This document shows positions 19,408 to 57,346 of a stretch of DNA of 61,644 bases, piece by piece. The translations under genes were made by a program, and so were the position numbers. This DNA comes from Klebsiella phage SopranoGao. Where the stretch lies: sequence record NC_054966.1, one strand, 5' to 3'. How positions within the stretch are numbered: the first letter of the stretch is position 1; the number at the start of each line of letters is the position of its first letter. The notes beneath the pieces were generated by a model that made no database searches, was not told where the DNA came from, and saw nothing but the letters and a program-made list of their open reading frames with translations.

Positions 19408-19444
19408 GTTGCCCTTTTAGCAACATGATAGACAAAAGGGCAAC
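19408..19444. promoter_or_regulatory. palindrome GTTGCCCTTTT-N15-AAAAGGGCAAC (GTTGC-N27-GCAAC class) upstream of 18971-19396 gene
   Basis: perfect 11-bp inverted arms. Confidence 0.5.
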
Positions 19445-19462
19445 GCACGACCATTACCAAGT

Positions 19463-19642
19463 TTACGGATTCTGCGCCGCGAGTAACGATTTTACCTGTT
19501 TTTCCAGCTGATCGATGCGACGCAGGGCGGCGTCCAGCTCCTCCGCGCGGACGGCGCGCTTCGGCCTGGCCTTGTCTCCACGCGAGCCGTCGAGCACTTC
19601 AACCTTTTCTTTGACCTTTTGCCATTCGCTATCGCTAACCAT
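19463..19642 (-). CDS. 59-aa coiled-coil protein, start overlapping stop of upstream gene (TAATG)
   Basis: ORF below track cutoff found by manual translation MVSDSEWQKVKEKVEVLDG... Confidence 0.35.
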   Translation of the reverse strand: MVSDSEWQKVKEKVEVLDGSRGDKARPKRAVRAEELDAALRRIDQLEKQVKSLLAAQNP

Positions 19643-21390
19643 TATGCGCCTCCCGCGATATCTTCAGGTGTGGCCGCCACAGTGACGGCGGTAATCCTCT
19701 GGTTGCCGCGCACTTCCAGCTCCAGGGTGGTGTACATCCGTTTACCGGGCAGGCGTTCAATCTCGTTGATGCGGTAGATGGTGGCGATCAGCTCACCATC
19801 GCCATAGACCGCGCAGGAGAATGACGGATCCGCGTCTTCCAGTGGCTCCAGCAGACTACCGGCGAAGGTCACAACACCCAGGGCGGCATCGGCCAGCGCG
19901 CCATCAGAGTTATCGGCATTCATCCGGACGCGGTTGCGCGCCCGAACGGCGGCATTCTTCGCCAGGCGCTCCTTGATCTGCTCGTCGCTCGATGCGTCTT
20001 CCCCTTCCACCAGGATAGCGCCCCAGTTGTAGTAGCTGGGCGAAACGAACCGCTTAGAGCGCCAGTACATTTCCGCGTATGGCTCGGATATCGCGTCCCA
20101 CTCGAAAATCTCCCGGCCGCCGCGCAGCAGGTACAGCACGCCGGTGCCAATTTCGAAGAACATGGCGCTGGCGTAGTCGGCGTATCTCTCCAGGAATGGC
20201 TGGGATCCGGACAGGTCGATGCTGATAATGCCGCGCCGCTCGATGTTGTCGCTATCCAGGTACGCGTAAGACGCAAGGTAGCGCCCGGCGAACTGCCCGG
20301 CGATAAAGCTCTCTGGCTGCATCTGCCGCCACTGGTCGCGGGTCATCAGGCTGGCGGTGGCGACGGCCGCGCCGTTCTGCGAGATCGTGACCAGCCCCTG
20401 CGGCGACGCGTAGGCAACGGAATAGCCCAGGTCAACGATGCTCGATGCCGCGATGCATGGATAGTTCACCCGGATCCGGTCCATCGTCATGTTTTCCGGG
20501 GCGGTGCCCTGGGCGACATACGGCGATCCCTTCGTCATGATGGCAACGGACGTGCCAAACACGCCCAGGCCGACGATCTCATAGTCGCAGGTCAGGATGT
20601 ACTTTTCCGGCCACGCGTGCGGGCGGTATGGCTCACTGAAATACAGCTTCTTCCCGACGAAAGCGGCCATCATGCCGTTTGGCAGGGAGGTAAGCCCCTG
20701 CAGGCCATCCGGCGGCGCGTTGTAGTCGGTGCTGGGCAGCACTTCGTTGATCGGGTTATCCGCCACCACATCCACGAAATCGGCGGCCGTCGCCTCCCGC
20801 TCTTTGATGAAATAGAGGGTGGTGACGCCGCTGCTGCTGGTCTGTGACCGGTAGATGCGCATGCGGTTGATACCGCGCCCGGCCGGCGGAGCCTGGAAGC
20901 CAGACAGGCGAACATCAAGGCCAGGACTCCACAAAAGCCCGGCTGACAATGGCGCTGGCTCTGATTCCTCGTCCAGCTCCGTTACCCAGGTGTAAGTCCA
21001 GATAACGGTGGAAGACAGATCGTCGTCAACGTCGCCAGAAACGATAGCGGTTGTCAGCGCTACAGACGGGAACGGCACCGCCAGCGGCCAGGTCTTGCCG
21101 TTGGCGATAACCTTCGGAACGCCGTCTCCGGTCACATAGAGACGATCTTCCGCCACCGGGCCAGGGGCGACGCGAACCACGCCGGGCCAGCCCAGCCACT
21201 CCCCATCGGTGGTTTTGTAGAAGGTTTTGCAGTCGAAACCGAACCGGTTGACGTAGCGCGCCCTGCGGATCGGCAGCAGCGAGCCGTCTTCCAGTTTGGT
21301 GTTCTGCGACACCTGCGCATAGTTGTTGTCCAGCAACCGGGGAATAACGCGCGGTATCTCCCCGGAAAACGCCGCTATGCGAACGCTCAT
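19642..21390 (-). CDS. 582-aa virion structural protein candidate (unknown)
   Basis: position in tail/ejection module; no recognisable motif. Confidence 0.4.
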   Translation of the reverse strand: MSVRIAAFSGEIPRVIPRLLDNNYAQVSQNTKLEDGSLLPIRRARYVNRFGFDCKTFYKTTDGEWLGWPGVVRVAPGPVAEDRLYVTGDGVPKVIANGKTWPLAVPFPSVALTTAIVSGDVDDDLSSTVIWTYTWVTELDEESEPAPLSAGLLWSPGLDVRLSGFQAPPAGRGINRMRIYRSQTSSSGVTTLYFIKEREATAADFVDVVADNPINEVLPSTDYNAPPDGLQGLTSLPNGMMAAFVGKKLYFSEPYRPHAWPEKYILTCDYEIVGLGVFGTSVAIMTKGSPYVAQGTAPENMTMDRIRVNYPCIAASSIVDLGYSVAYASPQGLVTISQNGAAVATASLMTRDQWRQMQPESFIAGQFAGRYLASYAYLDSDNIERRGIISIDLSGSQPFLERYADYASAMFFEIGTGVLYLLRGGREIFEWDAISEPYAEMYWRSKRFVSPSYYNWGAILVEGEDASSDEQIKERLAKNAAVRARNRVRMNADNSDGALADAALGVVTFAGSLLEPLEDADPSFSCAVYGDGELIATIYRINEIERLPGKRMYTTLELEVRGNQRITAVTVAATPEDIAGGA

Positions 21391-21752
21391 GAGGAGATCG
21401 CCGCGTCACTGATTACAGCAGTCACCACTGAGGGACTTGGCGTCCCGTTCTGCAGCTCGTCCATTGCGCCAGCGGTTAAACGCAGCTCGCAGAGGTCGCC
21501 AGCACTGAATTCCCGACGCTGGGAACCTTCAGCCCCACGCTGCACTGTGATGCTATCCCCTTCCCTGGCCGTCGCGCGCAGGTACTCGATGTTGCCGGAA
21601 TCATCCTCCAGCGCCAGCGGGAACCAGTCGCCGGTATTGGTCAGCACCGGGAATTTTACGCCGTGGCCTACTTTCACGCGGATCACCGTCTCGGAGTCGC
21701 TGATTGATACAGCCAGGATGCTACGGGCATTGTTGGTGAGTTTCAGGCTCAT
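21387..21752 (-). CDS. 121-aa protein (unknown, tail module)
   Basis: 4-nt overlap coupling with neighbours. Confidence 0.4.
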   Translation of the reverse strand: MSLKLTNNARSILAVSISDSETVIRVKVGHGVKFPVLTNTGDWFPLALEDDSGNIEYLRATAREGDSITVQRGAEGSQRREFSAGDLCELRLTAGAMDELQNGTPSPSVVTAVISDAAISS

Positions 21753-21754
21753 TG

Positions 21755-24634
21755 TTACCTCACGTTGTCTTCAAGCCAGCCCTGGGTTTGCACCAGGCGC
21801 TCTCTCATGGTTGTTGTGCTGATATTGCCGGGGATGCCAGCCGGGTATTTCAGCAGGTAGGCAATCGTCGCGATGATCTCGAACTGCCAGAAGCCGAACC
21901 ATTCCTGGTTGTCGTTCGCCCAGGTATGGCGCATTGCATCGGTCTGCCCTGTGCGCCAGCGGCTCTCGATGTACGTCCAGCAGCGCTCGCCAACAGCTTC
22001 CACGTTCGCCAGCTGCCCGGATGACAGCAGGCCGGACAATTTCAGCCAGAGGCAGGCGCGCAGGATAAGCGCTGGCGCGTGCGGCTCCTCATAGAGCTTC
22101 TGCGGCGCTCCTTTGCGGGGATCGTCCCAGTCAGTCGGCATACCGGCGATAGTGCCGTTCAGGTTCGGCCAGACGACGTTAATCCGCTCGATCCAGCTCA
22201 TCGCCATATCCAGCGCCAGGCCGCGAGCCGTTCCCCATGATGGCGTGCTGCGGGACAGCCAGCAGAGCTTCGCCAGGCTCTCGACTACTCGCGTCTGATA
22301 CCCCACCCAGCGGGTGTTCGGGTCATCGTTAGTGTACACCCATGTGTGCGGCGTCGGACTGCCGATGCTGATGCGTGCCGGGGTGTTCATCACGAAAGTA
22401 TGCGCGAATGGCCCGGCCGCGCCGCCGTCTGAGATCCACTTATCGCGTGCATGCTTCAGGAATAGCAGCTGTTGCTCGGCCAGCAATGCATTTTTCGTTT
22501 TGGCAACACCATTGGCACTAAAAGAAATCGGGTAGGTGATCGCTCCCGTCGCCTGGTCCGGCACCGGCATATTGACGGCCGGATTAAGGTCCGGGTGGAC
22601 TGCATCGGCATCGGCACCCAGGAACCACCACAGATCCGGCAGCTGGTAGCCGTGGAAAGGTGAGCCGTTCCAGCCGACAAACTGCTGCTTCACGGTGTCG
22701 GCGTTGATGGCAAACGGCATCGCACCGGGGAAAAATGGCATCGGGGAGCCGTGGACCGCTTTTGACAGGTTATCCCTCACCCATTGCTCACTCGCGCCGC
22801 TAACCGGGCGAAGCGCCACGATCTGAAGGCGGTACGCATCGCGCATTTCCATCGATATGCCGAAGTTCTCGAACCGCTGACCCGCCGGGAGTACGCTGTT
22901 ATCGCCGTCTTTGCGCCGGAATGACGTGCGGGGGATCAGGATATAGCTCGGCTTGTCCGGGCTGGTGGACGGTATCAGCGCCGCGTCCTGCCCAATATCA
23001 GCATACCAGCGCGTCGAGGCGTCATAATATTTGGTCGAGGACATGAAAACGTAGCAGCGCTCGCCCAGCGCCAGGTTCGGCCGCCGGGAGAGTGAAAGCG
23101 CCACGAACATAAACTGATCGGCTTCCTGGTAATCGGTCGCCTGCCGCCAGCTGTCATTGATGCCGCGCCCGATTTGCACCTGGCACACCGTGGCGGCCGC
23201 CGGAACGTCAGCGCGGATCGCCCCGTTGAAGAAGTTTCGACCGTTGGCCGCTTCTCCCATGTTCGCCGGGGTCCAGGTAAATTCGCCAGGCTTCACGGTT
23301 CCGCCGGAACCGCCTACGCGGGACCAGAAATTATAGCCGATCCAGCCAGCGTTTGCCCCAGCGCCAATAGCTCCAGGACCTGGCGGCGTCGCCTGGGGAT
23401 GGTTTGAATAGCAGAACATGCCGGACGGCTCACCCTTCGCCGGGATGGCGTCAAACTGCGGCATCGGCTTGATGATCTCGCGCAGGTCGCTGATAGCCTG
23501 CCCTTTCACCACCGTGCGCCGCATCGCGTCGCGCAGCTTCTGCCAGCGCGCCTGCATGCCGGTCCTGGTATCGACTTCCATCGCCAGAGACATCGCGTAC
23601 TCGAACCAGCGGAACGTGTCAGGCGCACAGGCTGAATAGCCTGGGTCGATTTTTGTCCAGCACGGATAGGCCTCTTCTGCCTCTCCCTGGCGGATTGTGC
23701 CCGCATTGTTGTAGCCATAGACGATGCACCAGTCGGAGACACCAGACGGCGCGCCAGCCGGGATCGTGATGACCACCGTGCTTCCGTCAAGGATCCAGTC
23801 GTCATCGGTAAGCGTGACGCTGGTATCTGCCACCGGGTGAGCGGAGTCATATGACGGGCTATATGGCGACTGGTACAGCAGATAGCTGCTGGCCGGGTAG
23901 ATCTGCCAGATACGGTAAACGTCAGCCGCACCTTTATGCCCAGGCACGTTGGCCGGGATATATAGCTTGTTGCCGTTCCTTGTGGCGCGGAAGGAGTAGT
24001 TGATGGCCTGTGACGGGATATCGCCGCGCGCGGCGAACAGCCAGTGCAGCAGCGTGATGGTGTTCTTGTCGTCGGGGATCTGCTGGCGCAGCATCGGCCC
24101 GGTTAGCGAACCGTTGCCCATCGCGTCGAGCATATTTTGGCCGTTGGCCTTATACCACTCAGCTGCGGCTTTTTCTTCGGCGTTGCCAGTCGCCAGCACT
24201 TGGCTTGCCAGCAGCGATCCCTCGATGCCGATTGACTGGCCTTCGCTGGTGCCGGAATTGTGGTGGAAATAGCCGCCGCGTCCCTCAACATTGTGGAATG
24301 CGTTAGTCATCAGACCACGCAGGATAAGCGGCCCGCCCAGTCCGTCAGTCGAACCTGCAGGAATGAGGGCTATGCCGTCAGAGTCAACGATGGTGCAATT
24401 CTGCGCCCGGTAAAGGGTGGTCATGAAGCGCTGCGCCTGTTCGCCAGGTCGCTCATCACGCACATCGACGGTGATTTGCTTCTCAACCTCTCCCGGAAGG
24501 AAAGTCAGCGTCCCACGCTGCGCGGTATAGTCATCTGGTGCCGTCGCCGTTATGTCAACGGTCACATAGTCGATCTGCACCTGCTGTGTGCTGGCCTGAG
24601 AAAGCCGCACGGTAAACACTGCTTTTCTGGTCAT
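21755..24634 (-). CDS. 959-aa receptor-binding/depolymerase candidate: N-terminal Calx-beta-like domain, C-terminal alpha-helical (alpha/alpha-barrel-like) domain
   Basis: N-term IDYVTVDITATAPDDYTAQRGTLTFLPGEVEKQITVDV Calx-beta pattern; size and location beside tailspikes. Confidence 0.45.
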   Translation of the reverse strand: MTRKAVFTVRLSQASTQQVQIDYVTVDITATAPDDYTAQRGTLTFLPGEVEKQITVDVRDERPGEQAQRFMTTLYRAQNCTIVDSDGIALIPAGSTDGLGGPLILRGLMTNAFHNVEGRGGYFHHNSGTSEGQSIGIEGSLLASQVLATGNAEEKAAAEWYKANGQNMLDAMGNGSLTGPMLRQQIPDDKNTITLLHWLFAARGDIPSQAINYSFRATRNGNKLYIPANVPGHKGAADVYRIWQIYPASSYLLYQSPYSPSYDSAHPVADTSVTLTDDDWILDGSTVVITIPAGAPSGVSDWCIVYGYNNAGTIRQGEAEEAYPCWTKIDPGYSACAPDTFRWFEYAMSLAMEVDTRTGMQARWQKLRDAMRRTVVKGQAISDLREIIKPMPQFDAIPAKGEPSGMFCYSNHPQATPPGPGAIGAGANAGWIGYNFWSRVGGSGGTVKPGEFTWTPANMGEAANGRNFFNGAIRADVPAAATVCQVQIGRGINDSWRQATDYQEADQFMFVALSLSRRPNLALGERCYVFMSSTKYYDASTRWYADIGQDAALIPSTSPDKPSYILIPRTSFRRKDGDNSVLPAGQRFENFGISMEMRDAYRLQIVALRPVSGASEQWVRDNLSKAVHGSPMPFFPGAMPFAINADTVKQQFVGWNGSPFHGYQLPDLWWFLGADADAVHPDLNPAVNMPVPDQATGAITYPISFSANGVAKTKNALLAEQQLLFLKHARDKWISDGGAAGPFAHTFVMNTPARISIGSPTPHTWVYTNDDPNTRWVGYQTRVVESLAKLCWLSRSTPSWGTARGLALDMAMSWIERINVVWPNLNGTIAGMPTDWDDPRKGAPQKLYEEPHAPALILRACLWLKLSGLLSSGQLANVEAVGERCWTYIESRWRTGQTDAMRHTWANDNQEWFGFWQFEIIATIAYLLKYPAGIPGNISTTTMRERLVQTQGWLEDNVR
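24350..24622 (-). other. Calx-beta-like domain (aa ~5-95 of 959-aa protein)
   Basis: same pattern as in 762-aa protein. Confidence 0.45.
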
Positions 24635-34478: not shown

Positions 34479-34556
34479 AATGTGCCCTCAAGAACGTGCG
34501 GTGTGTCGGGATCGCCGCACGTCTTGCGCAGCATTACGTTTCGATTATCGAATGCC

Positions 34557-34573
34557 TGTTGCTGAAATGCAAA
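34557..34573. promoter_or_regulatory. imperfect operator-like palindrome GTTGC-TGAAATG-CAAAC upstream of capsid gene
   Basis: member of GTTGC/GCAAC motif family; shares 16-mer GAAATGCAAACACTCA with 41347-41362. Confidence 0.4.
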
Positions 34574-34576
34574 CAC

Positions 34577-34786
34577 TCATGTCATGCCAATGGCGTTTTT
34601 GCTTTGAATGTCAACCTCCTGTTGCCCTTCTTTTGCGTCGGGGCGCTTATCGCAGTGAATAATAACCTCATCCGGCGCGTCGATGACCAAACCGCACCGC
34701 CTGCCAGCTTTGTACACCAGGCGAACGGTGGCATCGCCAATTTTGAGAACGTCACCATCACGCAAATCGAATTTAAGTGCCCCCAC
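34577..34786 (-). CDS. CsrA/RsmA-family RNA-binding protein homologue (69 aa)
   Basis: LKFDLRDGDVLKIGDATVRLVYKAGRRCGLVIDAPDEVIIH aligns with CsrA [42 protein letters not shown]. Confidence 0.6.
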   Translation of the reverse strand: MGALKFDLRDGDVLKIGDATVRLVYKAGRRCGLVIDAPDEVIIHCDKRPDAKEGQQEVDIQSKNAIGMT

Positions 34787-38492: not shown

Positions 38493-38523
38493 GATTACCC
38501 TCTGTTGCGTTTATGTCTTATGC

Positions 38524-38540
38524 GTTGCCAGTATAGCAAC
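38524..38540. promoter_or_regulatory. palindrome GTTGC-CAGTATA-GCAAC
   Basis: perfect 5-bp arms, N7 spacer. Confidence 0.5.
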
Positions 38541-41261: not shown

Positions 41262-41349
41262 AACGTGTCCTTGCGGGTTGACATATCCGCATGCATCGGG
41301 AATCGCTCCCGGATCGCTTTGTTGCGATTGTAGAAACAGGGGTTACGAA

Positions 41350-41616
41350 ATGCAAACACTCAAGCCGATAGATGGGCGGTGGCTTTACTGGCAACAGGTA
41401 GATCTGGCAAACGGTGTTTTCCGCGTGCAGGGCGCTGAATGGCGCACGGAATGTCCAGACTTAACCGAATGGGTTGACTGGACCGGTTCGGCGCAGCTGG
41501 AAGAAGAGATCGGCCTGGCTCTCGATATGCTTGGCGCGTACATGCTTGGTAAATGGGTTGGCTTCGGACGGACGATAGACGGCATCTGTCATGGTATAGC
41601 CTGGATGGTGTCCTGA
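41350..41616 (+). CDS. 88-aa protein (unknown), first gene of plus-strand island
   Basis: RBS; start overlaps GTTAC-GAAATG-CAAAC motif. Confidence 0.45.
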   Translation: MQTLKPIDGRWLYWQQVDLANGVFRVQGAEWRTECPDLTEWVDWTGSAQLEEEIGLALDMLGAYMLGKWVGFGRTIDGICHGIAWMVS

Positions 41617-43830: not shown

Positions 43831-44765
43831 TCTCTGCCCTCCCGCTCCCTCAGCATGCGGATAGCTTCATCGGCGGCGTTCGCGTTTGCCTGTGTCTGGT
43901 CGAGCTGTCTGGCGCGGGTATTTGTCATTGCCCGGCCATTCATCCACTGCGTGCGGTATCCCTCTGCGTTGAGCAGCAGGAAGTCGAGCGTATGGCTCGC
44001 CATCAGCACGCGCGGCTCGGTGACGTTCTCGACGTAGAAGCGGGCCACGCCAGGCGCTTCCCTGCCCAGCCGCTGGATGAGCTGCTTCACCTGCGCGTTG
44101 GTTTTCGCATTGCGCGGGATCGTCGTGTGATAGCGCTGCTCATAGGCTTTATCGAACCACTCCCAAAAGACTTCCCGGATCCGTTCGTAGCTGGGGCCGT
44201 TGTTCCTTTCGTCGTGTTGTTGCTGCTCTGACAACACTGCAGGCAAGCCACCAGCGGCCGGTGGCGATTTTTCGCCGCCGGTAAGATTCTCTGAGGTAGT
44301 CTCTGTAGTAGTCTCTGTATGAAGATCGGTGCATTTTGCCCCGTTGGGTCGGGGCTTTTTGCCCTTAACGGATGGGGCATTTTGCTCTGATGGGTTGGCG
44401 CAGTCTGCCCCATTCGATTGGTGCAAATTGCCCTGATCGGAGAGAAGCGCGTGCCGGTACTCAATTGTGTAAAAATTGGTGTGGTCGTGCTTCGATTTTC
44501 GCAGCTGCTTAACGTCCACCAGCCCCAGCTTTTTGAGCTTCGTCAGCGTCCGCTTGATGGTGTCCACGGACCAGAACGGGAAGTTGTCGCGCTGCCATTC
44601 CTCGAACGTGTTGTAGACCCATTTGCGGCCGTCGTGGACCTCGCCAGCGGTCGAGTCCTGGATCCAGTAGTTCAGTTGCTGCAGCACGATGGCTTCGTTC
44701 AGGCCGATACGGTCGGCCAGCTCCGCGTTTATGACGATGGGCTTGCGATTGAACAGGAGGCTCAT
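43827..44765 (-). CDS. replication initiator, phage O-like N-terminal domain
   Basis: N-term IVLQQLNYW...WVYNTFEEW...FWSVDTIKRTLTKLKKLGLV pattern; internal iterons. Confidence 0.6.
   Translation of the reverse strand: MSLLFNRKPIVINAELADRIGLNEAIVLQQLNYWIQDSTAGEVHDGRKWVYNTFEEWQRDNFPFWSVDTIKRTLTKLKKLGLVDVKQLRKSKHDHTNFYTIEYRHALLSDQGNLHQSNGADCANPSEQNAPSVKGKKPRPNGAKCTDLHTETTTETTSENLTGGEKSPPAAGGLPAVLSEQQQHDERNNGPSYERIREVFWEWFDKAYEQRYHTTIPRNAKTNAQVKQLIQRLGREAPGVARFYVENVTEPRVLMASHTLDFLLLNAEGYRTQWMNGRAMTNTRARQLDQTQANANAADEAIRMLREREGRE
44296..44319. repeat. two perfect tandem 12-bp iterons GTAGTCTCTGTA inside O-like gene, next to GC hairpin (44336-44360)
   Basis: read directly; lambda ori lies inside O. 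Confidence 0.5.
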
Positions 44766-45186: not shown

Positions 45187-45232
45187 GCTTTTGCCTTAGC
45201 CGCTCTACGGCGGCGATCCATTGCTGTTTTGA

Positions 45233-46222
45233 TTATTCAGTTGCTGAAATGGCAACACTCTTCCCGCACTTAGGGCAGAACTTCACGCCGTTCTCTTCCG
45301 GGCCGCCGTCAGGGAAAATCCATTCAACGCCGCATGTGCCAGACCAGTGGTCATCGTAATTGCTGAATGTCCAGGTGCAGCTTTCAGGAATAATTTCAGG
45401 AATATTTTGTGGTGCGTTTTGTTGTCCGCCAGCCTTAACAGCAGGGGCGTATACCGGCCCCGCGAGCGTCATGCCAGGTACGGGCACGTCGCTAATGGAA
45501 AATGCAGTGCCACCTTCGGCTGTGATAAACATGTAACCGATTTTCAGCATACCATCCGGAATTACCGGAGAGTTGCCAGGATGCACCGGACACGGCCAGC
45601 GAAGCGAGCCATCACCGCTGGGGCAGGTGCAAACAGGAGATACCGGCGCTGGCTGCGCGTTAGCCGCCGAGCGAAGCCGGAATGGCAAGTCGAACCACAC
45701 ACCTGCACCTGTCCTGTCTTTAGTGGTAAGCAGGTCTTCAATTGCTGATGCCGCCGTATGAAGCAGGTCTGCGCTGACTACCGGCGCTGGCGGCGCTGGC
45801 GGATAATTTGCCAGCATCCAACTAATGACGTAGTCGGCCTTGAACCGCTCAACCGGAAATCCTTCATTCCAGTCACGGAAGTGATAGATAACTTTTGCCA
45901 GCTCGGGCTGAAGCGCCACCGGCTCGCTGTCCATTGCGGCCAGGCGCTCTCGCATGTTGTCGATGCACTGAACCAGCGAGCCGCCTGGAGGAACGTCGAG
46001 TTCTTCCACCAGCTGGAAATAAATATCAGCGGCGGCTTTCGTGTTGGTGCCGATCCCTTCTTCACGCAGGGCGTCACGCTCTGCTGTCAGCTGCTCAATA
46101 CGGCGGTCTTTATCCAAAGACTCGCGCATATACTCCAGATAAAACTGCTCTTTAAGCGATATCTCGCCAGCCGATTCCAGGGCCGCGATACGCTCTTTCA
46201 CTGCTTCTGGTGTGATTTTCAT
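45233..46222 (-). CDS. 329-aa protein with N-terminal coiled coil and C-terminal Zn ribbon (unknown)
   Basis: FCPKCGKS C-terminus. Confidence 0.4.
   Translation of the reverse strand: MKITPEAVKERIAALESAGEISLKEQFYLEYMRESLDKDRRIEQLTAERDALREEGIGTNTKAAADIYFQLVEELDVPPGGSLVQCIDNMRERLAAMDSEPVALQPELAKVIYHFRDWNEGFPVERFKADYVISWMLANYPPAPPAPVVSADLLHTAASAIEDLLTTKDRTGAGVWFDLPFRLRSAANAQPAPVSPVCTCPSGDGSLRWPCPVHPGNSPVIPDGMLKIGYMFITAEGGTAFSISDVPVPGMTLAGPVYAPAVKAGGQQNAPQNIPEIIPESCTWTFSNYDDHWSGTCGVEWIFPDGGPEENGVKFCPKCGKSVAISATE
45240..45256. promoter_or_regulatory. palindrome GTTGC-TGAAATG-GCAAC
   Basis: perfect arms N7. Confidence 0.5.
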
Positions 46223-47730: not shown

Positions 47731-47776
47731 TCCCTATCGCCATATGGCGAATCGTAATTGCTAATCTGCACTGTGC

Positions 47777-47793
47777 GTTGCCAAAACAGCAAC
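47777..47793. promoter_or_regulatory. palindrome GTTGC-CAAAACA-GCAAC
   Basis: perfect arms N7. Confidence 0.5.
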
Positions 47794-50326: not shown

Positions 50327-50467
50327 TTAGCCTTTACGGCTGCAGTTTTTCACGATAGCGCGCCGAATTTCAGCATCGCGCTCGTCAGAACGCCCACTGC
50401 AGTAGCCGATAAAGAAAAATACGGCCGCCACAGTCATGCACAGGGCAAATATGCTATCTCCGCTCAT
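50327..50467 (-). CDS. 46-aa small membrane protein, ATGA-coupled to Cro-like stop
   Basis: manual translation MSGDSIFALCMTVAAVFFFIGYCSGR... Confidence 0.35.
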   Translation of the reverse strand: MSGDSIFALCMTVAAVFFFIGYCSGRSDERDAEIRRAIVKNCSRKG

Positions 50468-50745
50468 TTCTTCACCTCATTAACTTCTGGTGTGCCAGGA
50501 GAAAGAAGCGCTACAGCCTCAGCAAGTAATTTCCTTGCCTTAGTCACGGCATCATCTTTCTCCCCGTAAGTTTCAAGAACCAGAAGACGCAGCGAATCCG
50601 TCAGTATCTTCTGCCCGCTTTCAATCCGGCATCCCGTACCTTTCGATACGTGGATGGCCTCCCAAAAATCACGCTGAGAAATCCCCTTCTCTTTGCGGTA
50701 CTGCCGCAGCGTGATCGGGGTGATGTCGTTAATCGATTTAAAAGT
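50464..50745 (-). CDS. Cro/CII-like XRE HTH protein (93 aa), first gene of leftward early operon
   Basis: ITLRQYRKEKGISQRDFWEAIHVSKGTGCRIESGQK; divergent from CI-like gene. Confidence 0.55.
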   Translation of the reverse strand, partial: TFKSINDITPITLRQYRKEKGISQRDFWEAIHVSKGTGCRIESGQKILTDSLRLLVLETYGEKDDAVTKARKLLAEAVALLSPGTPEVNEVKK

Positions 50746-50761
50746 CATGTTGCCTCGCCGT

Positions 50762-50836
50762 GTTGTCCTCATAGCAACTATGTTGGCAAAAAATAATGCT
50801 AAAAGCAAACGCATGATTGCAATTTAGCAACGCAAC
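50762..50836. promoter_or_regulatory. operator region between divergent Cro-like and CI-like genes: GTTGT-N7-GCAAC (50762-50778), ATTGC-N6-GCAACGCAAC (50816-50836)
   Basis: half-sites read directly. Confidence 0.5.
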
Positions 50837-50877: not shown

Positions 50878-51474
50878 ATGCCTGTGAACAAAAAATATTT
50901 TGACGACCTGATGAAAGACCGCCGGATCTCCCTTCGGGCTATCGCCAGGGAAATGAACTGCTCACCTTCCCAGCTCTCCAGAACGTTCGGCGGGTACCGG
51001 CGCATGCAGCTGGCAGAAGCCGCAACCATCGCCAGAATGCTCGGCGTACCGGTGGTTGAGGTCATGGTGAATGCCGGTATCGAGGAAGTGCGGGATGAGC
51101 GGAAGTACGCCAAAGTGATCGGCTTCCTGAAAGGGGATTTGACCGTCTCCCCTGTCCCCGATGACGTCCGGGAACGGGTGCCACTTCCGATAGCAGACCT
51201 GCCGCCGGATACCGTCGCCATCCAGGCCCGCACTGCGAATACGCCGTTCTCCTTCCTGGATGGATGGGTTTTTTTTGCTGGCCCCAGGGTGGACGCCAGC
51301 GACGAGATCGGCAGCTACTGCGTGGCGCACATCGAGGGCGGCGACAAGATAATCGGCACGCTTTCGAAGGGCTATCAGCGCGGGACTTACAACGTCACCG
51401 GCGCGGCGGGCATCGCCAGGCAGAGCATGAAAGTCGATTGGGTTCGTAGGATTTATTTCACGCAACACGCCTAA
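50878..51474 (+). CDS. CI-like repressor candidate (N-terminal HTH, unassigned C-terminal domain)
   Basis: ISLRAIAREMNCSPSQLSRTF HTH; RBS GGGAGG; divergent arrangement with cro-like gene. Confidence 0.5.
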   Translation: MPVNKKYFDDLMKDRRISLRAIAREMNCSPSQLSRTFGGYRRMQLAEAATIARMLGVPVVEVMVNAGIEEVRDERKYAKVIGFLKGDLTVSPVPDDVRERVPLPIADLPPDTVAIQARTANTPFSFLDGWVFFAGPRVDASDEIGSYCVAHIEGGDKIIGTLSKGYQRGTYNVTGAAGIARQSMKVDWVRRIYFTQHA

Positions 51475-51476
51475 AA

Positions 51477-51517
51477 GTGTTGCTGTTCTCAAATATATTG
51501 TTCTAATATAGCAACAC
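51477..51517. promoter_or_regulatory. OL-like palindrome GTGTTGC-N27-GCAACAC with internal TGTTCT direct repeats, between cI-like gene and first gene of rightward operon
   Basis: read directly; same N27 spacing as 19408-19444. Confidence 0.5.
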
Positions 51518-51574
51518 AGGATTGCAGCGGTTAAATGATGACCGCTCACATAATCACCGTCAAAAGGGGGATTT

Positions 51575-52747: not shown

Positions 52748-52946
52748 AATAGCGGTCTATCACTACTCCGCATGGTTCAACAACGCACGCGGCCCCGTCC
52801 ATCATGACGGCGTTCTGCTGCTGCCGGTTATCAGCAATACCGAAAGCTATTTCGCGGCCCGCCAGGCTATCGCGAACGACCTGGGGATCCGCGTCGAAGT
52901 GCTCAACGTGAATTCTTTCGCCTACATCGGCCCGGCTTCTGTCTGA
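52737..52946 (+). CDS. 69-aa protein (unknown), overlaps previous gene by 11 nt
   Basis: track ORF. Confidence 0.35.
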   Translation: MGNEIAVYHYSAWFNNARGPVHHDGVLLLPVISNTESYFAARQAIANDLGIRVEVLNVNSFAYIGPASV

Positions 52947-52955
52947 GGAAAGGAT

Positions 52956-53762: not shown

Positions 53763-54175
53763 TGAAGCGGGTAGCCTTTTACCGCCGCGCTGGGGATCAG
53801 ACCACCAGCCTGGCGGGTACGAAAGAGCGGGTAGCATGGCGCTTATCCAAAGGCCCAGCCACCGGCACCGAGCTGGCGGAAATTTTCGGTATCACCAGAG
53901 TGCAGATGAACCACATCGCCTCGAAGTGGAAACCTGATGAAGCCACCAGCTCGATCAAAGCGTCTGAGTGGTTCCAGCTGCCGGACGGCGGCAGAGACAG
54001 GACTTACAGCCTGGAGCGTAAGCCGAAGCGGGTAACACCGAGCGGCGAAACGCCTCGATACACGCGAAAGACCTTCCTCACCGCCAGTAAGGAAACCAAG
54101 CGCCTCAACACTGAGCGCGCAAAACGCCGGGCGAGGCTTATCGCTGCCGGGCTTTATATTGACGAATTTAATTGA
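53762..54175 (+). CDS. 137-aa basic protein with HTH-like segment
   Basis: TGTELAEIFGITRVQMNHIAS. Confidence 0.4.
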   Translation: MKRVAFYRRAGDQTTSLAGTKERVAWRLSKGPATGTELAEIFGITRVQMNHIASKWKPDEATSSIKASEWFQLPDGGRDRTYSLERKPKRVTPSGETPRYTRKTFLTASKETKRLNTERAKRRARLIAAGLYIDEFN

Positions 54176-54354
54176 GGTCTATTGTGGAAAAATTGCCAGA
54201 GCTGCACTGCCAGTGCGGCGCTACGCCAAAAATGAACATCACCAGCGAAGGTGGTAAGACAAAGTATTACGTCAGCTGCTCCGCTTGTGGGCGTTCCTGT
54301 CCAATCAGTAAGCAGCCAGCGCGCGCCGCTGAGCGCTGGAATGAGAAGGGCTGA
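54172..54354 (+). CDS. Lar-like restriction-alleviation Zn-ribbon protein (60 aa)
   Basis: CQCG ... CSACG ... AAERWNEKG. Confidence 0.45.
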   Translation: MRSIVEKLPELHCQCGATPKMNITSEGGKTKYYVSCSACGRSCPISKQPARAAERWNEKG

Positions 54355-54359
54355 AGAAA

Positions 54360-54491
54360 ATGAATAATCGTCAGCTCATGATCGATGCATCCCGCTTTCG
54401 CGATGCAAAAGAGCGCCGCACTTTCTGGAGTGATCTGGCTATCACCATCGTGTGCGGCTCGGTGGCCGCCGTCCTTTTTACTCTCATTTAA
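54360..54491 (+). CDS. 43-aa small membrane protein (below track cutoff)
   Basis: manual translation ...LAITIVCGSVAAVLFTLI. Confidence 0.3.
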   Translation: MNNRQLMIDASRFRDAKERRTFWSDLAITIVCGSVAAVLFTLI

Positions 54492-54501
54492 CGGGAGGGG
54501 T

Positions 54502-54747
54502 ATGCTCAAGAAACGACACCTGGGCGCACCGGCCCAGCCGAAACATCACATCGGCGCAAAGGTGAACTACCGCGACCATCGCGGCAAAGAAGTACGGGGG
54601 ACCATCGTATCAGCTACCGCTAACTGGTTCGGCTATCACGATGGGGAAGCATTCACGCTGACGTATGCGCTGACGCATCCGACATCGAGCCGCCACGAGC
54701 ACCACGGCGACGACGACATTATCGGTGAAGTCACGGAGGGGAAATGA
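54502..54747 (+). CDS. 81-aa protein (unknown)
   Basis: RBS GGGAGGGG. Confidence 0.4.
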   Translation: MLKKRHLGAPAQPKHHIGAKVNYRDHRGKEVRGTIVSATANWFGYHDGEAFTLTYALTHPTSSRHEHHGDDDIIGEVTEGK

Positions 54748-55280
54748 GCTACTGGAAATTTACCAGCGCTGAGTCCCTGGCCGCCTGGGATGAAATGGTG
54801 CGCCAGGAAGAAGAGCTGAAGAAGCAGGGATCGACGTTTGCGGCCCTGTTCGACGGTAAGCCGGTCTATCAAAAGACCATGTGCGACTGGCGTTTCTATG
54901 GCGTTCGCTTCGACGGTCATGTGTACGTTGCCGCTGACCTGTGGACGAAGCCCACCAGCAAGAACGGCTACGCGCAGCAGCCGCGCGTTAAGGTGCCTGC
55001 AGCACTGAAACGTGAATCAGAGGCGCTGTGGCAGCTGTGGAATGACCAGCGTCCGCATATCACCGCCGACCGTGAAGCATTCTATGAGTCTGTCGGTCTG
55101 GACTGGGGGAACCTGATTTTTTCCGGCTTCGCCTCGTTCCGTTATGGCGACGTGATCTACTTTGAAACTGGGGCCACGCCGAAGCCCGAAGCCGGTGGCG
55201 TGGAAATTCTCGGAAGTGAATACGCCGCAGCCCAGCGCGCGGCTAAGGCTGGTGACAATGTGCCAGGCGCTAATTCTTAA
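54744..55280 (+). CDS. 178-aa protein (unknown)
   Basis: ATGA overlap. Confidence 0.4.
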   Translation: MSYWKFTSAESLAAWDEMVRQEEELKKQGSTFAALFDGKPVYQKTMCDWRFYGVRFDGHVYVAADLWTKPTSKNGYAQQPRVKVPAALKRESEALWQLWNDQRPHITADREAFYESVGLDWGNLIFSGFASFRYGDVIYFETGATPKPEAGGVEILGSEYAAAQRAAKAGDNVPGANS

Positions 55281-55587
55281 ATATAGTGGTCAGCCGGACC
55301 CTGAGCAGATGCTGGGGGTATGCACCACTGAGGAGATTATCGAAGTCCTCAAAGACCACGTTCGCAGCGAAGTACGTGACGAGGTGCGCGCTGACTACGA
55401 AAACCAGATATCCCAGCTTGAAAATGAACTGGAGGAGGAAGGCGACTGGAAGAGTACCGCAGAAAGCTGGGAGTGTGACGCAATAGGACTTTACCGGGCA
55501 ATAGAGAAAGCAATCGAATTGCCCTGGACGGAGGCGCTGCCGATATTGCGGCAGGCGATGGAAGACCACGGCAGCGAGATCGACTAA
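55258..55587 (+). CDS. 109-aa acidic protein (unknown); start uncertain
   Basis: overlaps previous gene by 23 nt in another frame. Confidence 0.3.
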   Translation: MCQALILKYSGQPDPEQMLGVCTTEEIIEVLKDHVRSEVRDEVRADYENQISQLENELEEEGDWKSTAESWECDAIGLYRAIEKAIELPWTEALPILRQAMEDHGSEID

Positions 55588-55721
55588 CTGGAGGTGCCCA
55601 TGCGGGAAGAAGAGATACAGCGTCTCGCTCCCCTTAACCGCATAGGTTGACGGGGCCAGGCATCCGTTACCACCTGAAACACTTTTATCAACCACCGCCC
55701 CCAAGGGCTAAAGAGAAAGGC

Positions 55722-56711
55722 ATGACTACCGAAAATATTGTTCAAGACACTGAAGAAAGCCGTATCGCACAGCAAAAGCGCGAGACGCTTCACTCACTGC
55801 TTTACATCATGGCTGAGTGTGCGCCTTCGGCAGAAAAATTCATGGGCATCGACGTGAAGGCGCTGGCCCGGAAGGTGAACGAAGCCTACGACCAGTTAGG
55901 CAACAACTATACCGTTGAAGCGTATCCAGCAGCCAATCCGCTTGCCGGTCTGGTGGTTCCCGGCAATAACGTCCTGGCTATGCATGCTGGCTCTACCGGC
56001 GAAAGAACCGTGTGCGCAGAAGAGGTAAAACTGGGTTCATCGTTCAAAGCCAGCAAAAAAGAGCACGCCAAATTCCATTCGCATCTGAGCAGCATTTCCT
56101 TTGGCGAGATCCAGGATATTGACGGCCAGCTGAGAATGGGGGCACGGATTTACTGGGATGATGGTTCTAAGACCGAAAAATCTGTGTGGTGCGGAAGCCT
56201 CGGCACGCCGAAAGACGAAGCTGAGCGCATCGCTCGAAATCGTATTTGGCTGTATGCCTCCACAAAAGACGAACGCGATTTGGAAGAGTGCGCGAGTGCC
56301 GAAGAAACGAAAAAAGGCACCCCTACCGTTCTGATCGCACTGCCTGCAGGTGCAGGTATGTCACTCACCCCGGAACAGGCCAGCTTCAATCTTCCGGAGG
56401 GGATCTCCACCGGCCAAATCTCGGACGGCTATCACACGTTCGATGAGCTGTACGCGCACCGCGTTCGCCTGTTCTCTGCCCTAATGCGCGCTCACCCGGA
56501 TAAATCATGGTGGAGCTTCAAACACCATGACGGCAGCGTGTGGGATGGCTGGATTATCGCTGGCATCGATACACCTGCAGGCCCGGCGACATATCACCTA
56601 CCGGTGTCAGAGATCGAATTCTTCAACGAAGGTGTTCGCCAGCTGCGCAGGGGTAAGGAGTGGGACGGTCACACCTCCGATGACGTGCTGGAGCGCCTGA
56701 AGTCTCTCTAA
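55722..56711 (+). CDS. 329-aa protein (unknown) with Trp-rich C-terminal domain
   Basis: RBS AAAGAGAAAGG; preceded by 134-bp non-coding gap. Confidence 0.45.
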   Translation: MTTENIVQDTEESRIAQQKRETLHSLLYIMAECAPSAEKFMGIDVKALARKVNEAYDQLGNNYTVEAYPAANPLAGLVVPGNNVLAMHAGSTGERTVCAEEVKLGSSFKASKKEHAKFHSHLSSISFGEIQDIDGQLRMGARIYWDDGSKTEKSVWCGSLGTPKDEAERIARNRIWLYASTKDERDLEECASAEETKKGTPTVLIALPAGAGMSLTPEQASFNLPEGISTGQISDGYHTFDELYAHRVRLFSALMRAHPDKSWWSFKHHDGSVWDGWIIAGIDTPAGPATYHLPVSEIEFFNEGVRQLRRGKEWDGHTSDDVLERLKSL

Positions 56712-56751
56712 TGCCGGATACCGGCCAATAACAACCCACAAAGGGGGAAGC

Positions 56752-57273
56752 ATGCAAAAGATTCAACCGATGGAGCCGCAGCGCAATAGCGAAGGCTACT
56801 GGTGCCACCCGGATATGCCGGACATTGAAACCAGCGAGCAGTTTGATAGCTGGATTTCTTCGCAGGGGCTTCAATACGCCCTCCACTGTCTCGATGGTGA
56901 CGACGGGATCGGTGCTGAAGATGCGCAGGCCCGCTACGAGGAAGGCGACACCGACATTCTGGCTTGGCAACCTTCACAGCCTGAAGGTGAAGGCTGGTTT
57001 ATCGCCTCGATCCACGACACTGAAGATGGCCCGGTTTGCCTGTGGATCCGTCACCCGACCGAAGAGCAGCTGCGCGAAGCGGAAGAGCGGAAGAAATTGC
57101 AGGCGCTGAAGGAGGATTTCCTGGCGAAGCACCGCGCCTGCGTGGCGGCCGCCTATGCGTATTTCTCGGCCTGCACGGAAGGTGAGGACCGCATTTTTGC
57201 CAGCGAGGTGTATCAGCGCATTCGCCTGGCGACGGCGAAGCGTAACCCGGTGGAAACTCAGATCGTCAAGTAG
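56752..57273 (+). CDS. 173-aa acidic protein (unknown)
   Basis: track ORF. Confidence 0.4.
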   Translation: MQKIQPMEPQRNSEGYWCHPDMPDIETSEQFDSWISSQGLQYALHCLDGDDGIGAEDAQARYEEGDTDILAWQPSQPEGEGWFIASIHDTEDGPVCLWIRHPTEEQLREAEERKKLQALKEDFLAKHRACVAAAYAYFSACTEGEDRIFASEVYQRIRLATAKRNPVETQIVK

Positions 57274-57329
57274 GATGGTGGGGAAGTTCACGCTTCCCCC
57301 TTTTCAGACTGTTTCGCCCTTGTTAATAG

Positions 57330-57346
57330 CGTTGCTGAAACAGCAA
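57330..57346. promoter_or_regulatory. palindrome GTTGC-TGAAACA-GCAAC upstream of xis-like gene
   Basis: perfect arms N7. Confidence 0.5.

Follow-up and report, generated by a model that had tools for sequence, protein, structure and literature searches.

The genome of Klebsiella phage SopranoGao carries a dispersed family of 37-nt elements that are probably pairs of adjacent CI/Cro-type operators built into promoter cores, and candidate binding sites of the phage CI repressor. The analyzed stretch (NC_054966.1; 61,644 nt, called the window below) is a complete temperate Lastavirus-like genome with a lambda-like layout in mirror image. It is 94% identical to Klebsiella phages LASTA, SJM3 and ZX1, and a more distant relative, L014, is 70% identical. 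The putative operator family was previously unreported; control by scattered repressor operators is of a known kind.

The repeat family

The exact palindrome GTTGC-N7-GCAAC occurs six times in a whole-window scan (starting at 6605, 19408, 38524, 45240, 47777 and 57331) against 0.07 expected, and none of 100 shuffled sequences reached six, which confirms the excess supposed in the initial annotation. Its list of copies was right at 38524, 45240 and 47777, one base off at 57330-57346 (correctly 57331-57347), and lacked 6605-6621, inside the giant gene. An imperfect copy before the capsid gene does exist, although it is better placed at 34558-34574 (GTTGC-N7-CAAAC) than at 34557-34573. The degenerate form GTTKB-N7-VMAAC has 12 matches against 1.58 expected. 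When GTTGC...GCAAC spacings from 0 to 60 are plotted as a histogram, only N7 (6 pairs) and N27 (5 pairs, at 12639, 19408, 22471, 38504 and 51479) are enriched; over the same range neither the opposite arrangement nor direct repeats of the half-sites have an enriched spacing.

The two spacings are the inner and outer distances of one tripartite 37-nt element, [G/A]TTGC-N15-GTTGC-N7-GCAAC. There are two perfect copies against 0.005 expected and six one-mismatch copies against 0.01 (expectations from 200 third-order Markov simulations), that is, eight copies with no or one mismatch against 0.015, and about 13 when weaker copies are included (Table 1). The conserved AC noted earlier after the palindrome is real. 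Judged from its sequence, the element is most likely two adjacent 17-bp CI/Cro-type operators with centers 20 bp, or about two helical turns, apart. One operator of the pair is most likely the full palindrome, and the other is usually reduced to its distal half-site, 20 bp from the full operator, so that the half-site spacings read as N7 and N27. The 20-bp offset and the same-face geometry first described thus stand, but these are not two types of site.

The arms at 41643-41671, formerly counted in the family, have the opposite arrangement (GCAAC-N16-GTTGC), and the site is therefore not a copy of the element. Its right arm is the -35 of a predicted rightward promoter, TTGCCA-18-CATATT.

Table 1. 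Copies of the 37-nt element and features of the immunity region in the window
Feature	Coordinates	Strand	Context and sequence
Lysis-cassette element	2913..2949	+	upstream of cassette; ATTTC-N15-GTTGC-N7-aCAAC
Giant-gene element 1	6585..6621	+	intragenic, DarB-like giant gene; ATTGC-N15-GTTGC-N7-GCAAC
Giant-gene element 2	12639..12675	+	intragenic; GTTGC-N15-GgTGC-N7-GCAAC
Acetyltransferase element	19408..19444	-	perfect GTTGC-N15-GTTGC-N7-GCAAC; outer arms extended to 11 bp
Tail-gene element	22471..22507	-	intragenic, tail gene 21755..24634 (-); GTTGC-N15-aTTGC-N7-GCAAC
Capsid promoter element	34538..34574	+	between CsrA-like gene and capsid gene
Methyltransferase element	38504..38540	+	perfect copy between terL and small methyltransferase gene
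terS promoter element	41321..41357	+	minus strand GTGTTTG-N7-tAACc-N8-TACAAT-C-GCAAC
O-gene element	44199..44235	+	inside O-like replication initiator gene; GTTGT-N15-GTTGC-N7-aCAAC-AC
Early-operon element e2	45220..45256	+	straddles stop codon of gene 45233..46222; ATTGC-N15-GTTGC-N7-GCAAC-AC
Early-operon element e1	47757..47793	+	between rha-like gene and next gene; ATTGC-N15-GTTGC-N7-GCAAC-AC
Cro-like HTH gene	50464..50748	-	94 aa; alternative or second candidate binder; Pfam RsaL-like HTH_92
OR-like region	50749..50836		between cro-like gene and cI
CI-like repressor gene	50878..51474	+	198 aa; proposed binder; Pfam HTH_31, HTH_26
PL-like element	51479..51515	+	5 nt 3' of cI stop; GTTGC-N15-tGTTc-N7-GCAAC-AC
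xis-like element	57311..57347	+	GTTTC-N15-GTTGC-N7-GCAAC, then AGGAG, then ATG at 57362

Placement and conservation

Eight of the 13 elements are intergenic in a genome with 6.8% non-coding sequence (p = 4e-7) and four lie inside genes, in agreement with the earlier description of a dispersed, mostly intergenic, non-random family. Nine of the 13 are oriented along transcription. Among the window, LASTA, ZX1 and contig 149159, variable columns number 2 of 195 in the half-sites and 23 of 286 in the spacers (Fisher p = 5e-4); this avoidance of the half-sites by substitutions suggests selection. The methyltransferase element, which stands 5' of the methyltransferase-portal genes, does not differ among these four sequences. 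The N7 spacer of e2 varies in close relatives (TGAAATG, TGGAATA, TGTAATA) while the half-sites are fixed. The first giant-gene element differs from that of LASTA at three spacer positions and at no half-site position, and has no match in ZX1; the second is kept in both phages, with changes confined to the spacers.

Serratia phage Parlo, Erwinia phage PEp14 and metagenomic relatives have the element at the same places. Both Parlo and PEp14 carry it 5' of the xis-like gene, within the early operon and in or beside the immunity region, as well as at the promoters of the capsid gene, terS and the lysis cassette. Orthologs of the acetyltransferase gene are preceded by it in Parlo (GTTTC..GTTTG-N7-CAAAC) and in two metagenomic relatives. 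An ortholog of e1 is present in all 10 relatives whose region was retrieved, its palindrome half-site following the class of the CI recognition helix. The xis-like element is preceded by a rho-independent terminator and followed by the Shine-Dalgarno sequence of a xis-like HTH_17 gene, an order that recurs in Parlo, PEp14, L038, L040, L031 and L029. The O-gene element, found at the same place in L038, L043, L044, L042 and L014, may have an origin-related role.

Coding sequence may account for part of this conservation. The Parlo giant gene has a similar element at a comparable place (52605) and the Parlo tail gene also carries its element, with GTTGC-type half-sites. Coding constraint may thus contribute to the second giant-gene element and is a possible cause of the tail-gene element, whose function is uncertain. 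For the giant-gene and tail-gene copies, some such constraint would count against the operator reading.

Overlap with predicted promoters

At five sites (terS, capsid, methyltransferase, lysis and PL-like), the palindrome occupies about -37 to -21 of a predicted sigma-70-type promoter and overlaps the -35. A half-site provides TTGC as the -35 element, the spacer is 18 bp, and the third half-site falls at about -5 to -1. The -10-like hexamers have a fixed position and the direction of the downstream genes, and are good at four of the five sites, the methyltransferase site being weaker (CATAAA). On the minus strand, the lysis element reads GTTGT-N7-GCAAC-N8-TAAAAT-C-GAAAT (TAAAAT at 2919-2924), between the terminator 3' of the giant gene and the endolysin start at 2862. 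The capsid element reads GTGTTTG-N7-GCAAC-N8-GATAAT-C-GAAAC (GATAAT at 34544-34549), and the methyltransferase element GTGTTGC-N7-GCAAC-N8-CATAAA-C-GCAAC, followed by AGAGGG and ATG. At terS, where a consensus promoter scan gives TTTGCA-18-TACAAT on the minus strand, the complete operator is the second one, GTTTC-N7-GCAAC over the -10, and 41321-41337 is among the degenerate-form matches. The PL-like element, read rightward, is TTGCTG-18-TAATAT-A-GCAAC and faces the rightward operon. By itself, a scan with the promoter template shows no more than a modest excess (5 against 2.2).

Parlo and PEp14 share the lysis, capsid and terS promoters with the window: the lysis orthologs have TATAAT in both phages, the capsid architecture is common to them, and the terS element is nearly identical. 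The methyltransferase-gene and PL-like promoters are present in PEp14, and the methyltransferase architecture also in L014; Parlo has no clear equivalent of either promoter. Element e1 has a weak -10-like CAGATT on the minus strand, and a cAnnaT-like hexamer is found there in 8 of 11 genomes, the window included. No convincing -10 was found in either direction at the xis and acetyltransferase sites, which counts against operators built into promoter cores.

It is possible, though rather unlikely, that the element is mainly a phage-specific promoter consensus, with a -35 of GTGTTGC or GTGTTTGCA, an 18-bp spacer, a -10 and C-GCAAC at the start, and that a repressor binds only in the immunity region. 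Host RNA polymerase would then read the element, possibly with a conserved phage activator or co-factor. The directional hexamers at the lysis, capsid, terS, methyltransferase, PL-like and e1 sites fit this, and the 18-bp spacer with a three-of-six match to the -35 consensus suggests promoters that need help. Furthermore, in phages of all CI classes the PL-like and late promoters have much the same half-site on the -35 side (GTGTTTGCA), and the start-proximal half-site (GCAAC or GAAAC) is likewise much alike, so part of the element may belong to the promoter, or be bound by a second, conserved factor, instead of being contacted by CI. However, GCAAC is not a known requirement of sigma-70, whether at -5 to -1 or within the spacer, and at least six copies (xis, acetyltransferase, O-gene, both giant-gene and tail-gene) lack a -10-like hexamer in either direction. 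A promoter consensus also leaves the dyad symmetry and the class-specific variants unexplained, and the palindrome center, at about -29, is the position of a repressor and not that of a class I or class II activator.

The immunity region and the candidate binder

The operator reading is tied to the immunity region by related palindromes between cro and cI and by a full element right after cI; the latter is also present in L028, L030, L031, L033, L040, L044 and PEp14. The OR-like region contains GTTGC (50749), the 17-bp palindrome GTTGT-N7-GCAAC (50762-50778), ATTGC-N6-GCAAC (50816-50831) and GCAAC (50832-50836). The N6 spacing of the cI-proximal operator, in place of N7, counts against this reading. 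Lambda CI activates PRM from a position about 40 bp upstream of the start site, and the center of the cI-proximal operator is about 40 bp 5' of the putative cI start site; by analogy, it is a possible PRM analogue. The best palindrome of this region in Parlo, L029 and L041 is of their own class, TGTTTGC-N5-GCAAACA.

The AlphaFold model of the CI-like protein (pLDDT 89.9) has its best PDB matches in the lambda and 186 repressors and the lambda CI C-terminal domain, and predicts a two-domain, lambda-repressor-like protein; an S24 peptidase domain was not detected by Pfam. The protein is 45% identical to the repressor-like gp16 of Parlo. The Cro-like gene is divergent from cI.

The palindrome half-sites differ between relatives (GTTGC, GTTTG, GTTGT) and track the class of the CI recognition helix. 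GTTGC palindromes accompany the helix SPSQLSRT (window, L038, L039), and GTTTG/CAAAC accompanies LPSQLSLT (Parlo, L041, L029). At the orthologous early site, phages with WPAALSRS have GTTGT/ACAAC; L043 and L030 match it exactly, and PEp14, L042 and L033 match with one mismatch. L040 and L031 are exceptions, having the SPSQLSRT helix with mixed half-sites and no perfect GTTGC palindrome. This covariation, together with the modeled fold, points to a dimeric CI/Cro-type HTH protein as the most plausible binder, in line with the first proposal. CI and Cro are not cleanly separable by it, since the immunity module is inherited as a block. In LASTA, only the last 47 codons of cI remain and the DNA-binding domain is gone, while all sites are kept and the Cro-like gene is 100% identical; as the deletion looks recent, the sites retained in LASTA are weak counter-evidence.

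Binding by another phage protein, namely the Cro-like protein alone, the xis-like HTH_17 protein or a small XRE protein encoded antisense between terS and terL, appears improbable. Cro normally uses CI operators, yet the Cro-like helix varies inside operator classes and differs within one CI class. In three genera the xis-like gene directly follows an element, an arrangement compatible with autoregulation, and P2 Cox and 186 Apl are excisionases that double as transcriptional repressors. Excisionase-type proteins, however, usually take direct repeats rather than 17-bp dyads, and the xis-like protein is nearly invariant (79% identity between the window and Parlo) while the half-site differs between these phages. 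The XRE gene has conserved counterparts in Parlo and L014, but nothing links its protein to the sites; the antisense XRE at 40264, named in the initial annotation as a possible binder, has no special support.

That the palindromes are RNA hairpins (for termination, processing or translational control) or recombination or module-boundary sequences is very improbable: three sites do abut a Shine-Dalgarno sequence 11-14 nt 5' of a start codon, the genes flanking e2 and the gene content between e1 and e2 do differ between the window and LASTA, and the acetyltransferase site, whose 11-bp arms are real and lie 11 nt 5' of the start codon at 19396, folds strongly (-21.3 kcal/mol, z = -3.9) and has compensatory long-arm changes in one metagenomic relative, but folding is not consistently above that of shuffled sequence (z = -0.3 for e1, +1.1 for e2), there is no Rfam match, the stems have no following T-run, the half-site sequence is conserved and not just its complementarity, orientation relative to transcription is not uniform, and elements also occur in the immunity control region, where operators are expected.

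Comparison with known systems

As in the lambdoid CI/Cro operators (lambda OR1-3 and OL1-3; P22; 434), the sites are 17-bp dyads located between divergent cI and cro, and again beyond cI beside the operon leading to xis and int. As in lambda, adjacent operators about two helical turns apart, suiting cooperative dimers, overlap the -35 and -10, and the repressor has two domains with a lambda-CI-like C-terminal domain. Lambda, however, confines its operators to OR and OL and controls its late genes by Q antitermination, whereas SopranoGao has about ten extra copies, placed at late, lysis and accessory positions and at internal ones. In most pairs the second operator is down to one half-site, and CI lacks a Pfam-detected S24 peptidase domain.

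The C1 repressor of P1, which is not a lambda-type HTH protein, binds as a monomer to more than a dozen asymmetric 17-bp operators over the genome, and the late operons of P1 are controlled indirectly through the activator Lpa. The likeness would lie in one immunity repressor with many dispersed operators on separate operon promoters and direct genome-wide repression; the SopranoGao sites differ in being tandem-pair dyads, apparently directly on late and lysis promoters.

The analogy first drawn was to the stoperators of mycobacteriophage L5 (cluster A), which would have in common with these elements many repressor sites in transcribed regions, concentrated in short intergenic gaps, and genome-wide silencing in the lysogen. 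Stoperators, however, are asymmetric 13-bp sites of fixed orientation relative to transcription that block elongation, whereas the SopranoGao core is palindromic, orientation is mixed, and five or more copies form part of promoter cores; this last feature argues for repression of initiation. Closer parallels are dispersed operators of the P1 type and the tandem operators of lambda. The activator sites of lambda CII and P22 C1 (TTGC-N6-TTGC) likewise have a TTGC core overlapping a poor -35, but they are direct repeats 10 bp apart, whereas here the N7 repeats are inverted and the direct repeats are 20 bp apart.

Proposed mechanism

Dimers of the lambda-like CI would occupy the dispersed sites, possibly cooperatively through the C-terminal domain, and so, probably, would the Cro-like protein. 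With the palindrome at about -37 to -21, TTGC as the -35 and the third half-site at about -5 to -1, the core promoter would lie entirely under bound repressor, which would prevent initiation. As the core promoters at dispersed sites would be covered in this way, one protein would directly shut early, late, lysis and accessory transcription units in the lysogen. If binding holds, the lambda-like repressor of one temperate phage would silence many transcription units by means of one 37-nt element.

Occurrence and conservation of the element

The palindrome GTTGC-N7-GCAAC belongs to a real, conserved and, in the literature searched, undescribed element that is probably regulatory. The initial annotation had claimed the palindrome as recurrent, and six exact copies are indeed present against 0.07 expected from dinucleotide shuffles. 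A copy at 6605 had been overlooked, and the coordinate 57330 was off by one base. Among all GTTGC...GCAAC spacings from 0 to 60, only N7 (six pairs) and N27 (five pairs) are enriched, and the same histogram gave no enrichment of the reverse arrangement or of direct repeats. Listing the N27 pairs and aligning all sites places both spacings in one 37-nt element, [G/A]TTGC-N15-GTTGC-N7-GCAAC, usually with AC directly on its 3' side. With zero or one mismatch this tripartite pattern occurs eight times (0.015 expected, 200 third-order Markov simulations), and the degenerate palindrome GTTKB-N7-VMAAC occurs 12 times (1.58 expected). When weaker copies are counted there are 13 elements, in addition to which the cro-cI region holds related palindromes. 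The core is a perfect 5+7+5 palindrome of 17 bp, and the flanking third half-site, [G/A]TTGC, is its sole asymmetry.

The window (61.6 kb) spans the whole genome of a Lastavirus-like podophage. Over the 20-kb stretch compared (30000-50000), its identity to the Klebsiella phages LASTA, SJM3 and ZX1 is 94%. The phage belongs to the Bcep22-like group, whose phages have a giant DarB-like virion protein. Mapping of the LASTA annotation, together with family scans, gives a mirrored lambda-like layout. The early genes of the leftward operon, a Rha-like gene and an O-like replication initiator among them, are followed by a small rightward gene island, then by terS, terL, a small methyltransferase, portal, capsid and tail genes, and finally by the acetyltransferase gene, a 4369-aa giant gene and the lysis cassette. 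A gene for an XRE-type HTH protein of 72 aa (40264-40482, +) lies antisense within the late operon, between terS and terL. Its homolog in Serratia phage Parlo (58% identity) is unannotated on that strand, and that in the relative L014 is 75% identical.

Elements, candidate promoters and genes of the regulatory layout (window positions)
Feature	Position	Strand or direction	Description
37-nt elements	starts 2913, 6585, 12639, 19408, 22471, 34538, 38504, 41321, 44199, 45220, 47757, 51479, 57311		13, weaker copies counted
Lysis element		as downstream genes	hexamer TAAAAT
Capsid element		as downstream genes	hexamer GATAAT
terS element		as downstream genes	hexamer TACAAT
Methyltransferase element		as downstream genes	hexamer CATAAA
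Early-operon element e1	47757	as downstream genes	hexamer CAGATT
PL-like element, after cI	51479	rightward, towards rightward operon	same template, TTGCTG-18-TAATAT-A-GCAAC
CsrA-like protein gene	34577..34786	-	
Cro-like HTH gene	50464..50748	-	first gene of leftward operon
CI-like HTH repressor gene (cI)	50878..51474	+	first gene of rightward operon
HTH_17 xis-like gene	57362..57568		in rightward operon
Tyrosine integrase	60335..61600		rightward operon extends to here

Placement and conservation point to functional sites. Non-coding sequence makes up 6.8% of the genome; eight of the 13 elements are fully intergenic (binomial p = 4e-7), and a ninth crosses a stop codon. The curated LASTA annotation was used for this test, greedy longest-ORF calls being misleading because of over-extended ORF starts. 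Orientation relative to local transcription is alike in nine elements and opposite at 19408, 22471, 51479 and 57311. When the window is aligned with LASTA, ZX1 and a closely related metagenomic sequence, variable columns amount to 2/195 in the half-sites versus 23/286 in the spacers (Fisher p = 5e-4), the N7 spacers of the early-operon elements e1 and e2 (45220) being especially variable. In a 70%-identical relative the element is still present in the gap that separates terL from the next gene, with spacers that differ throughout. A motif scan of viral contigs returned mostly chance single matches, plus LASTA, one close relative and one 70%-identical relative. Coding constraint is suggested for some intragenic copies, since Parlo has them too, with half-sites of the GTTGC type.

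The stretch between e2 and e1 (window 45220-47793, LASTA 43150-47040) differs in gene content, with HindIII-type and C5 methyltransferases in LASTA and other small genes in the window, and both flanking elements are conserved. The two elements may be module boundaries for recombination.

Relation of the element to promoters

Read on the strand that begins with the palindrome, most elements fit GTGTTGC-N7-GCAAC-N8-hexamer-N1-GCAAC. The Parlo and Erwinia phage PEp14 orthologs have TATAAT, GATAAT and TACAAT at the same position, and the Parlo early site has TATGAT; the hexamer of the e1 ortholog is cAnnaT-like in 8 of 11 genomes (10 retrieved relatives and the window). These are consensus-level -35/-10 matches at fixed positions, conserved over three genera, and a template scan gave just 5 matches vs 2.2 expected.

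In such a promoter the palindrome would span about -37 to -21, its TTGC serving as the -35 with a spacer of 18 bp, and the third half-site would lie at about -5 to -1. A protein bound to the palindrome would occlude the promoter. The centre near -29 is the position of a repressor, not that of a class I or class II activator. At terS, the complete operator of the putative pair is the second, GTTTC-N7-GCAAC, which lies over the -10.

A -10-like hexamer is absent at the xis, acetyltransferase, O-gene, giant-gene and tail-gene copies. These copies look like promoterless operators, or may have another role. At the xis and acetyltransferase genes, the copy has a terminator or another gene on its upstream side and, on its other side, the Shine-Dalgarno sequence of the gene that follows; three genera share the orientation of these copies. 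A -10 read in reverse, inside N7 or at the 3' end of N15, was rejected as inconsistent over the sites, the exceptions being the PL-like site and a conserved TATCAT before the acetyltransferase gene.

Two exact copies of GCGCAAGACGTGCGG lie at 2884-2898 (-) and 34515-34529 (-), about 15-20 nt downstream of the predicted lysis and capsid starts, and the block is found at orthologous places as GCGCAAGACGTGCGG (Parlo capsid), GCGCTGGACGTGCGG (Parlo lysis) and GCGCATGACGTGC (PEp14); in late transcripts it may form a hairpin of the leader RNA or serve as a site for a regulator. A tGATTCGnC block downstream of e1 (47731-47756 (-) and orthologs) is present in most retrieved relatives of any CI class, and may be part of the leader of an internal early transcript. 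The annotated ATG (41350) of the LASTA gp27 homolog (41350-41616, +) falls inside the terS promoter element (GAAATGCAAAC). This protein is conserved in Parlo (49%) and L014 (60%), which makes divergent transcription from the terS promoter region likely.

At the acetyltransferase site (19408-19444) the outer arms lengthen to 11 bp and form a perfect inverted repeat, with an RNA fold of -21.3 kcal/mol (z = -3.9). The metagenomic relative IMGVR 3300018411_000001 retains 10 of the 11 arm pairs via two compensatory changes, and the N15, TTTTnTCTATCAT, is conserved across genera. The LASTA-annotated start of the gene (18971-19435, -) is an ATG within the element, at 19426. As the equivalent upstream ATG of Parlo is out of frame, the true start is probably the downstream ATG, at 19396, with GGGG as its Shine-Dalgarno sequence.

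Immunity region and the candidate repressor

Palindromes at 50762-50778 and 50816-50831 are situated between the divergent cro-like gene and cI, the cI-proximal one with N6 rather than N7 spacing. The element 51479-51515 starts 5 nt past the cI stop codon; its outer two half-sites are perfect and the inner ones degenerate. Sites between the cro-like gene and cI and beside cI are also seen in Parlo, PEp14 and metagenomic relatives.

CI (198 aa) belongs to the XRE-type HTH proteins, and its C-terminal domain is lambda-like. In its AlphaFold model (pLDDT 89.9) five helices make up an N-terminal HTH domain, and the C-terminal domain is rich in beta structure. Among PDB entries, the model best matches a lambda-186 hybrid repressor and fragments of the C-terminal domain of lambda CI (E = 1e-7 to 3e-4). 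A sequence search against solved structures gave nothing significant, and Pfam detected no S24 peptidase domain. In the linker, Ala66 is found in at least 90% of aligned homologs and Gly67 is invariant. Lambda CI dimerises through its C-terminal domain, which also lets it bind cooperatively to operators about two turns apart. The present element would have this same geometry if it consists of two 17-bp operators with centres 20 bp apart.

LASTA is lytic and ZX1 temperate (PMC10052179, PMC9505181), a difference explained by the state of LASTA cI, of which only the last 47 codons are left (LASTA locus L002:64-204). LASTA is thus a repressor-deletion derivative of a temperate lineage, and it has kept every operator-like element examined.

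Covariation of half-sites and the CI recognition helix

Parlo has its own over-represented palindrome, TGTTTGC-N5-GCAAACA (that is, GTTTG-N7-CAAAC), accompanied by a third half-site at a distance of 15 nt. The Parlo palindrome is found at four syntenic positions, namely ahead of the xis-like gene, in the early operon, in the gap separating the repressor gene from the cro-like gene, and 11 nt upstream of the acetyltransferase start. In PEp14 the element architecture precedes the methyltransferase, capsid, lysis, terS and xis-like genes, and is also found beside the repressor gene.

A database search identified a family of CI homologs of 191-206 aa, many on contigs of ~60 kb, whose recognition helices fall into discrete classes. 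Orthologous sites were compared after retrieving 20 kb around nine of these homologs. Phages with the helix SPSQLSRT (the window, L038, L039) have GTTGC/GCAAC palindromes, and those with LPSQLSLT (Parlo, L041, L029) have GTTTG/CAAAC. With WPAALSRS, the orthologous early site is GTTGT/ACAAC, exact in L043 and L030 and with one mismatch in PEp14, L042 and L033. The exceptions are L040 and L031, which have the SPSQLSRT helix yet mixed half-sites. These observations suggest a small code, in which three CI recognition-helix classes correspond to three half-site variants.

The Cro-like helix is variable inside each CI class. CI and Cro are inseparable by covariation alone because the immunity genes are co-inherited, and it is possible that the binder is another HTH protein, namely the xis-like protein, the XRE protein or Cro alone. 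From the tracking of helix class by half-site and the resemblance of the modelled fold to lambda repressor, we infer that CI is the probable binder of the sites.

Nature of the element

The element is most likely a tandem immunity operator built into many promoters of a temperate podophage. It would comprise two adjacent 17-bp operators, one of which is usually cut down to its distal half-site.

Some parts of the element do not depend on the CI class. These are the third half-site and, at the PL-like and late promoters, the -35-side half-site GTGTTTGCA, which vary little between classes; they may belong to the promoter as such, or a second conserved factor may bind there. A pure promoter consensus accounts for these parts, but it leaves the dyad, the class-specific variants and the promoterless copies unexplained. 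An RNA hairpin or terminator is unlikely: the palindrome would form a 5-bp stem with a 7-nt loop and has no T-run, no Rfam family matched, and the fold z-scores are inconsistent, with some sites, but neither e1 nor e2, folding better than shuffled sequence. A terminator scan of 38001-58000, which covers seven elements, placed one weak stem on the first half-site of 45220 and none on the other six.

By inspection, the spacing and sequence misfit a sigma-54, ECF or phage RNA-polymerase promoter, and neither inspection nor the Pfam and PHROG results for the proteins scanned revealed a phage polymerase or sigma gene. A host transcription factor was rejected, as the palindrome half-site differs among phages of related hosts. 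A motif scan of bacterial genomes gave, among the matches listed, only scattered, chance-like single matches in unrelated phyla, and we know of no enterobacterial factor with this consensus.

Comparison with known regulatory systems

The putative tandem operator resembles lambdoid CI/Cro operators in being a dyad of the 14-18 bp class, with sites in the cro-cI region and beside cI. The earlier analogy to stoperators fails on two features that define the L5 type, asymmetry and single orientation: the L5-type site is asymmetric, about 13 bp long and in one orientation, whereas the present one is palindromic and in mixed orientation. Furthermore, five copies fall on predicted promoter cores, and this favours control of initiation over a block of elongation; the intragenic copies could still act as roadblocks.

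The closest functional analogue is the dispersed operator network of P1 C1. The copies of the present element are dispersed and promoter-associated, and a single repressor for them is putative. The site type and repressor family differ, the P1 operator being an asymmetric 17-bp sequence bound by a monomeric C1-family protein, whereas dyads and an XRE-type HTH repressor are found here. A lambda CII-type site, in which TTGC direct repeats 6 bp apart flank the -35, was rejected on repeat geometry; the direct repeats here have a start-to-start distance of 20 bp, and direct repeats at N6 are not enriched.

A bolder proposal, which we regard as improbable, is that this phage group lacks a separate late switch. 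One lambda-type repressor would gate all units directly through tandem operators in the core of every promoter (early, PL-like, terS, portal, capsid, lysis and accessory genes), and GTGTTTGCA at the -35 together with GCAAC at the start site would serve a second conserved phage factor. Each promoter would then obey two conditions, absence of the repressor and presence of the factor, a design unlike those of lambda (Q antitermination), P2 (Ogr activator) and P1 (Lpa).

Implications for Bcep22-like phages

Bcep22-like podophages (Lastavirus, Parlovirus, Pavtokvirus and Burkholderia/Ralstonia relatives) are common, and some have been proposed for therapy. The papers searched describe no regulatory circuit for them, and the motif is in no paper within the literature searched. 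The paper on LASTA gives no operators or promoters ("motif" there denotes a coding repeat), and none are reported in that on the Bcep22-like phage JC1. The element provides a concrete map of likely promoters and repressor sites for the whole group, and suggests an unusually direct silencing of the late and lysis genes.

Of the "lytic" therapy candidates, LASTA is a CI-deletion derivative of a temperate lineage, and SJM3, reported as near-identical, is probably another. Given this derivation and the operator copies kept in LASTA, both phages should be sensitive to the repressor of a related prophage, such as that of ZX1 or of the window phage.
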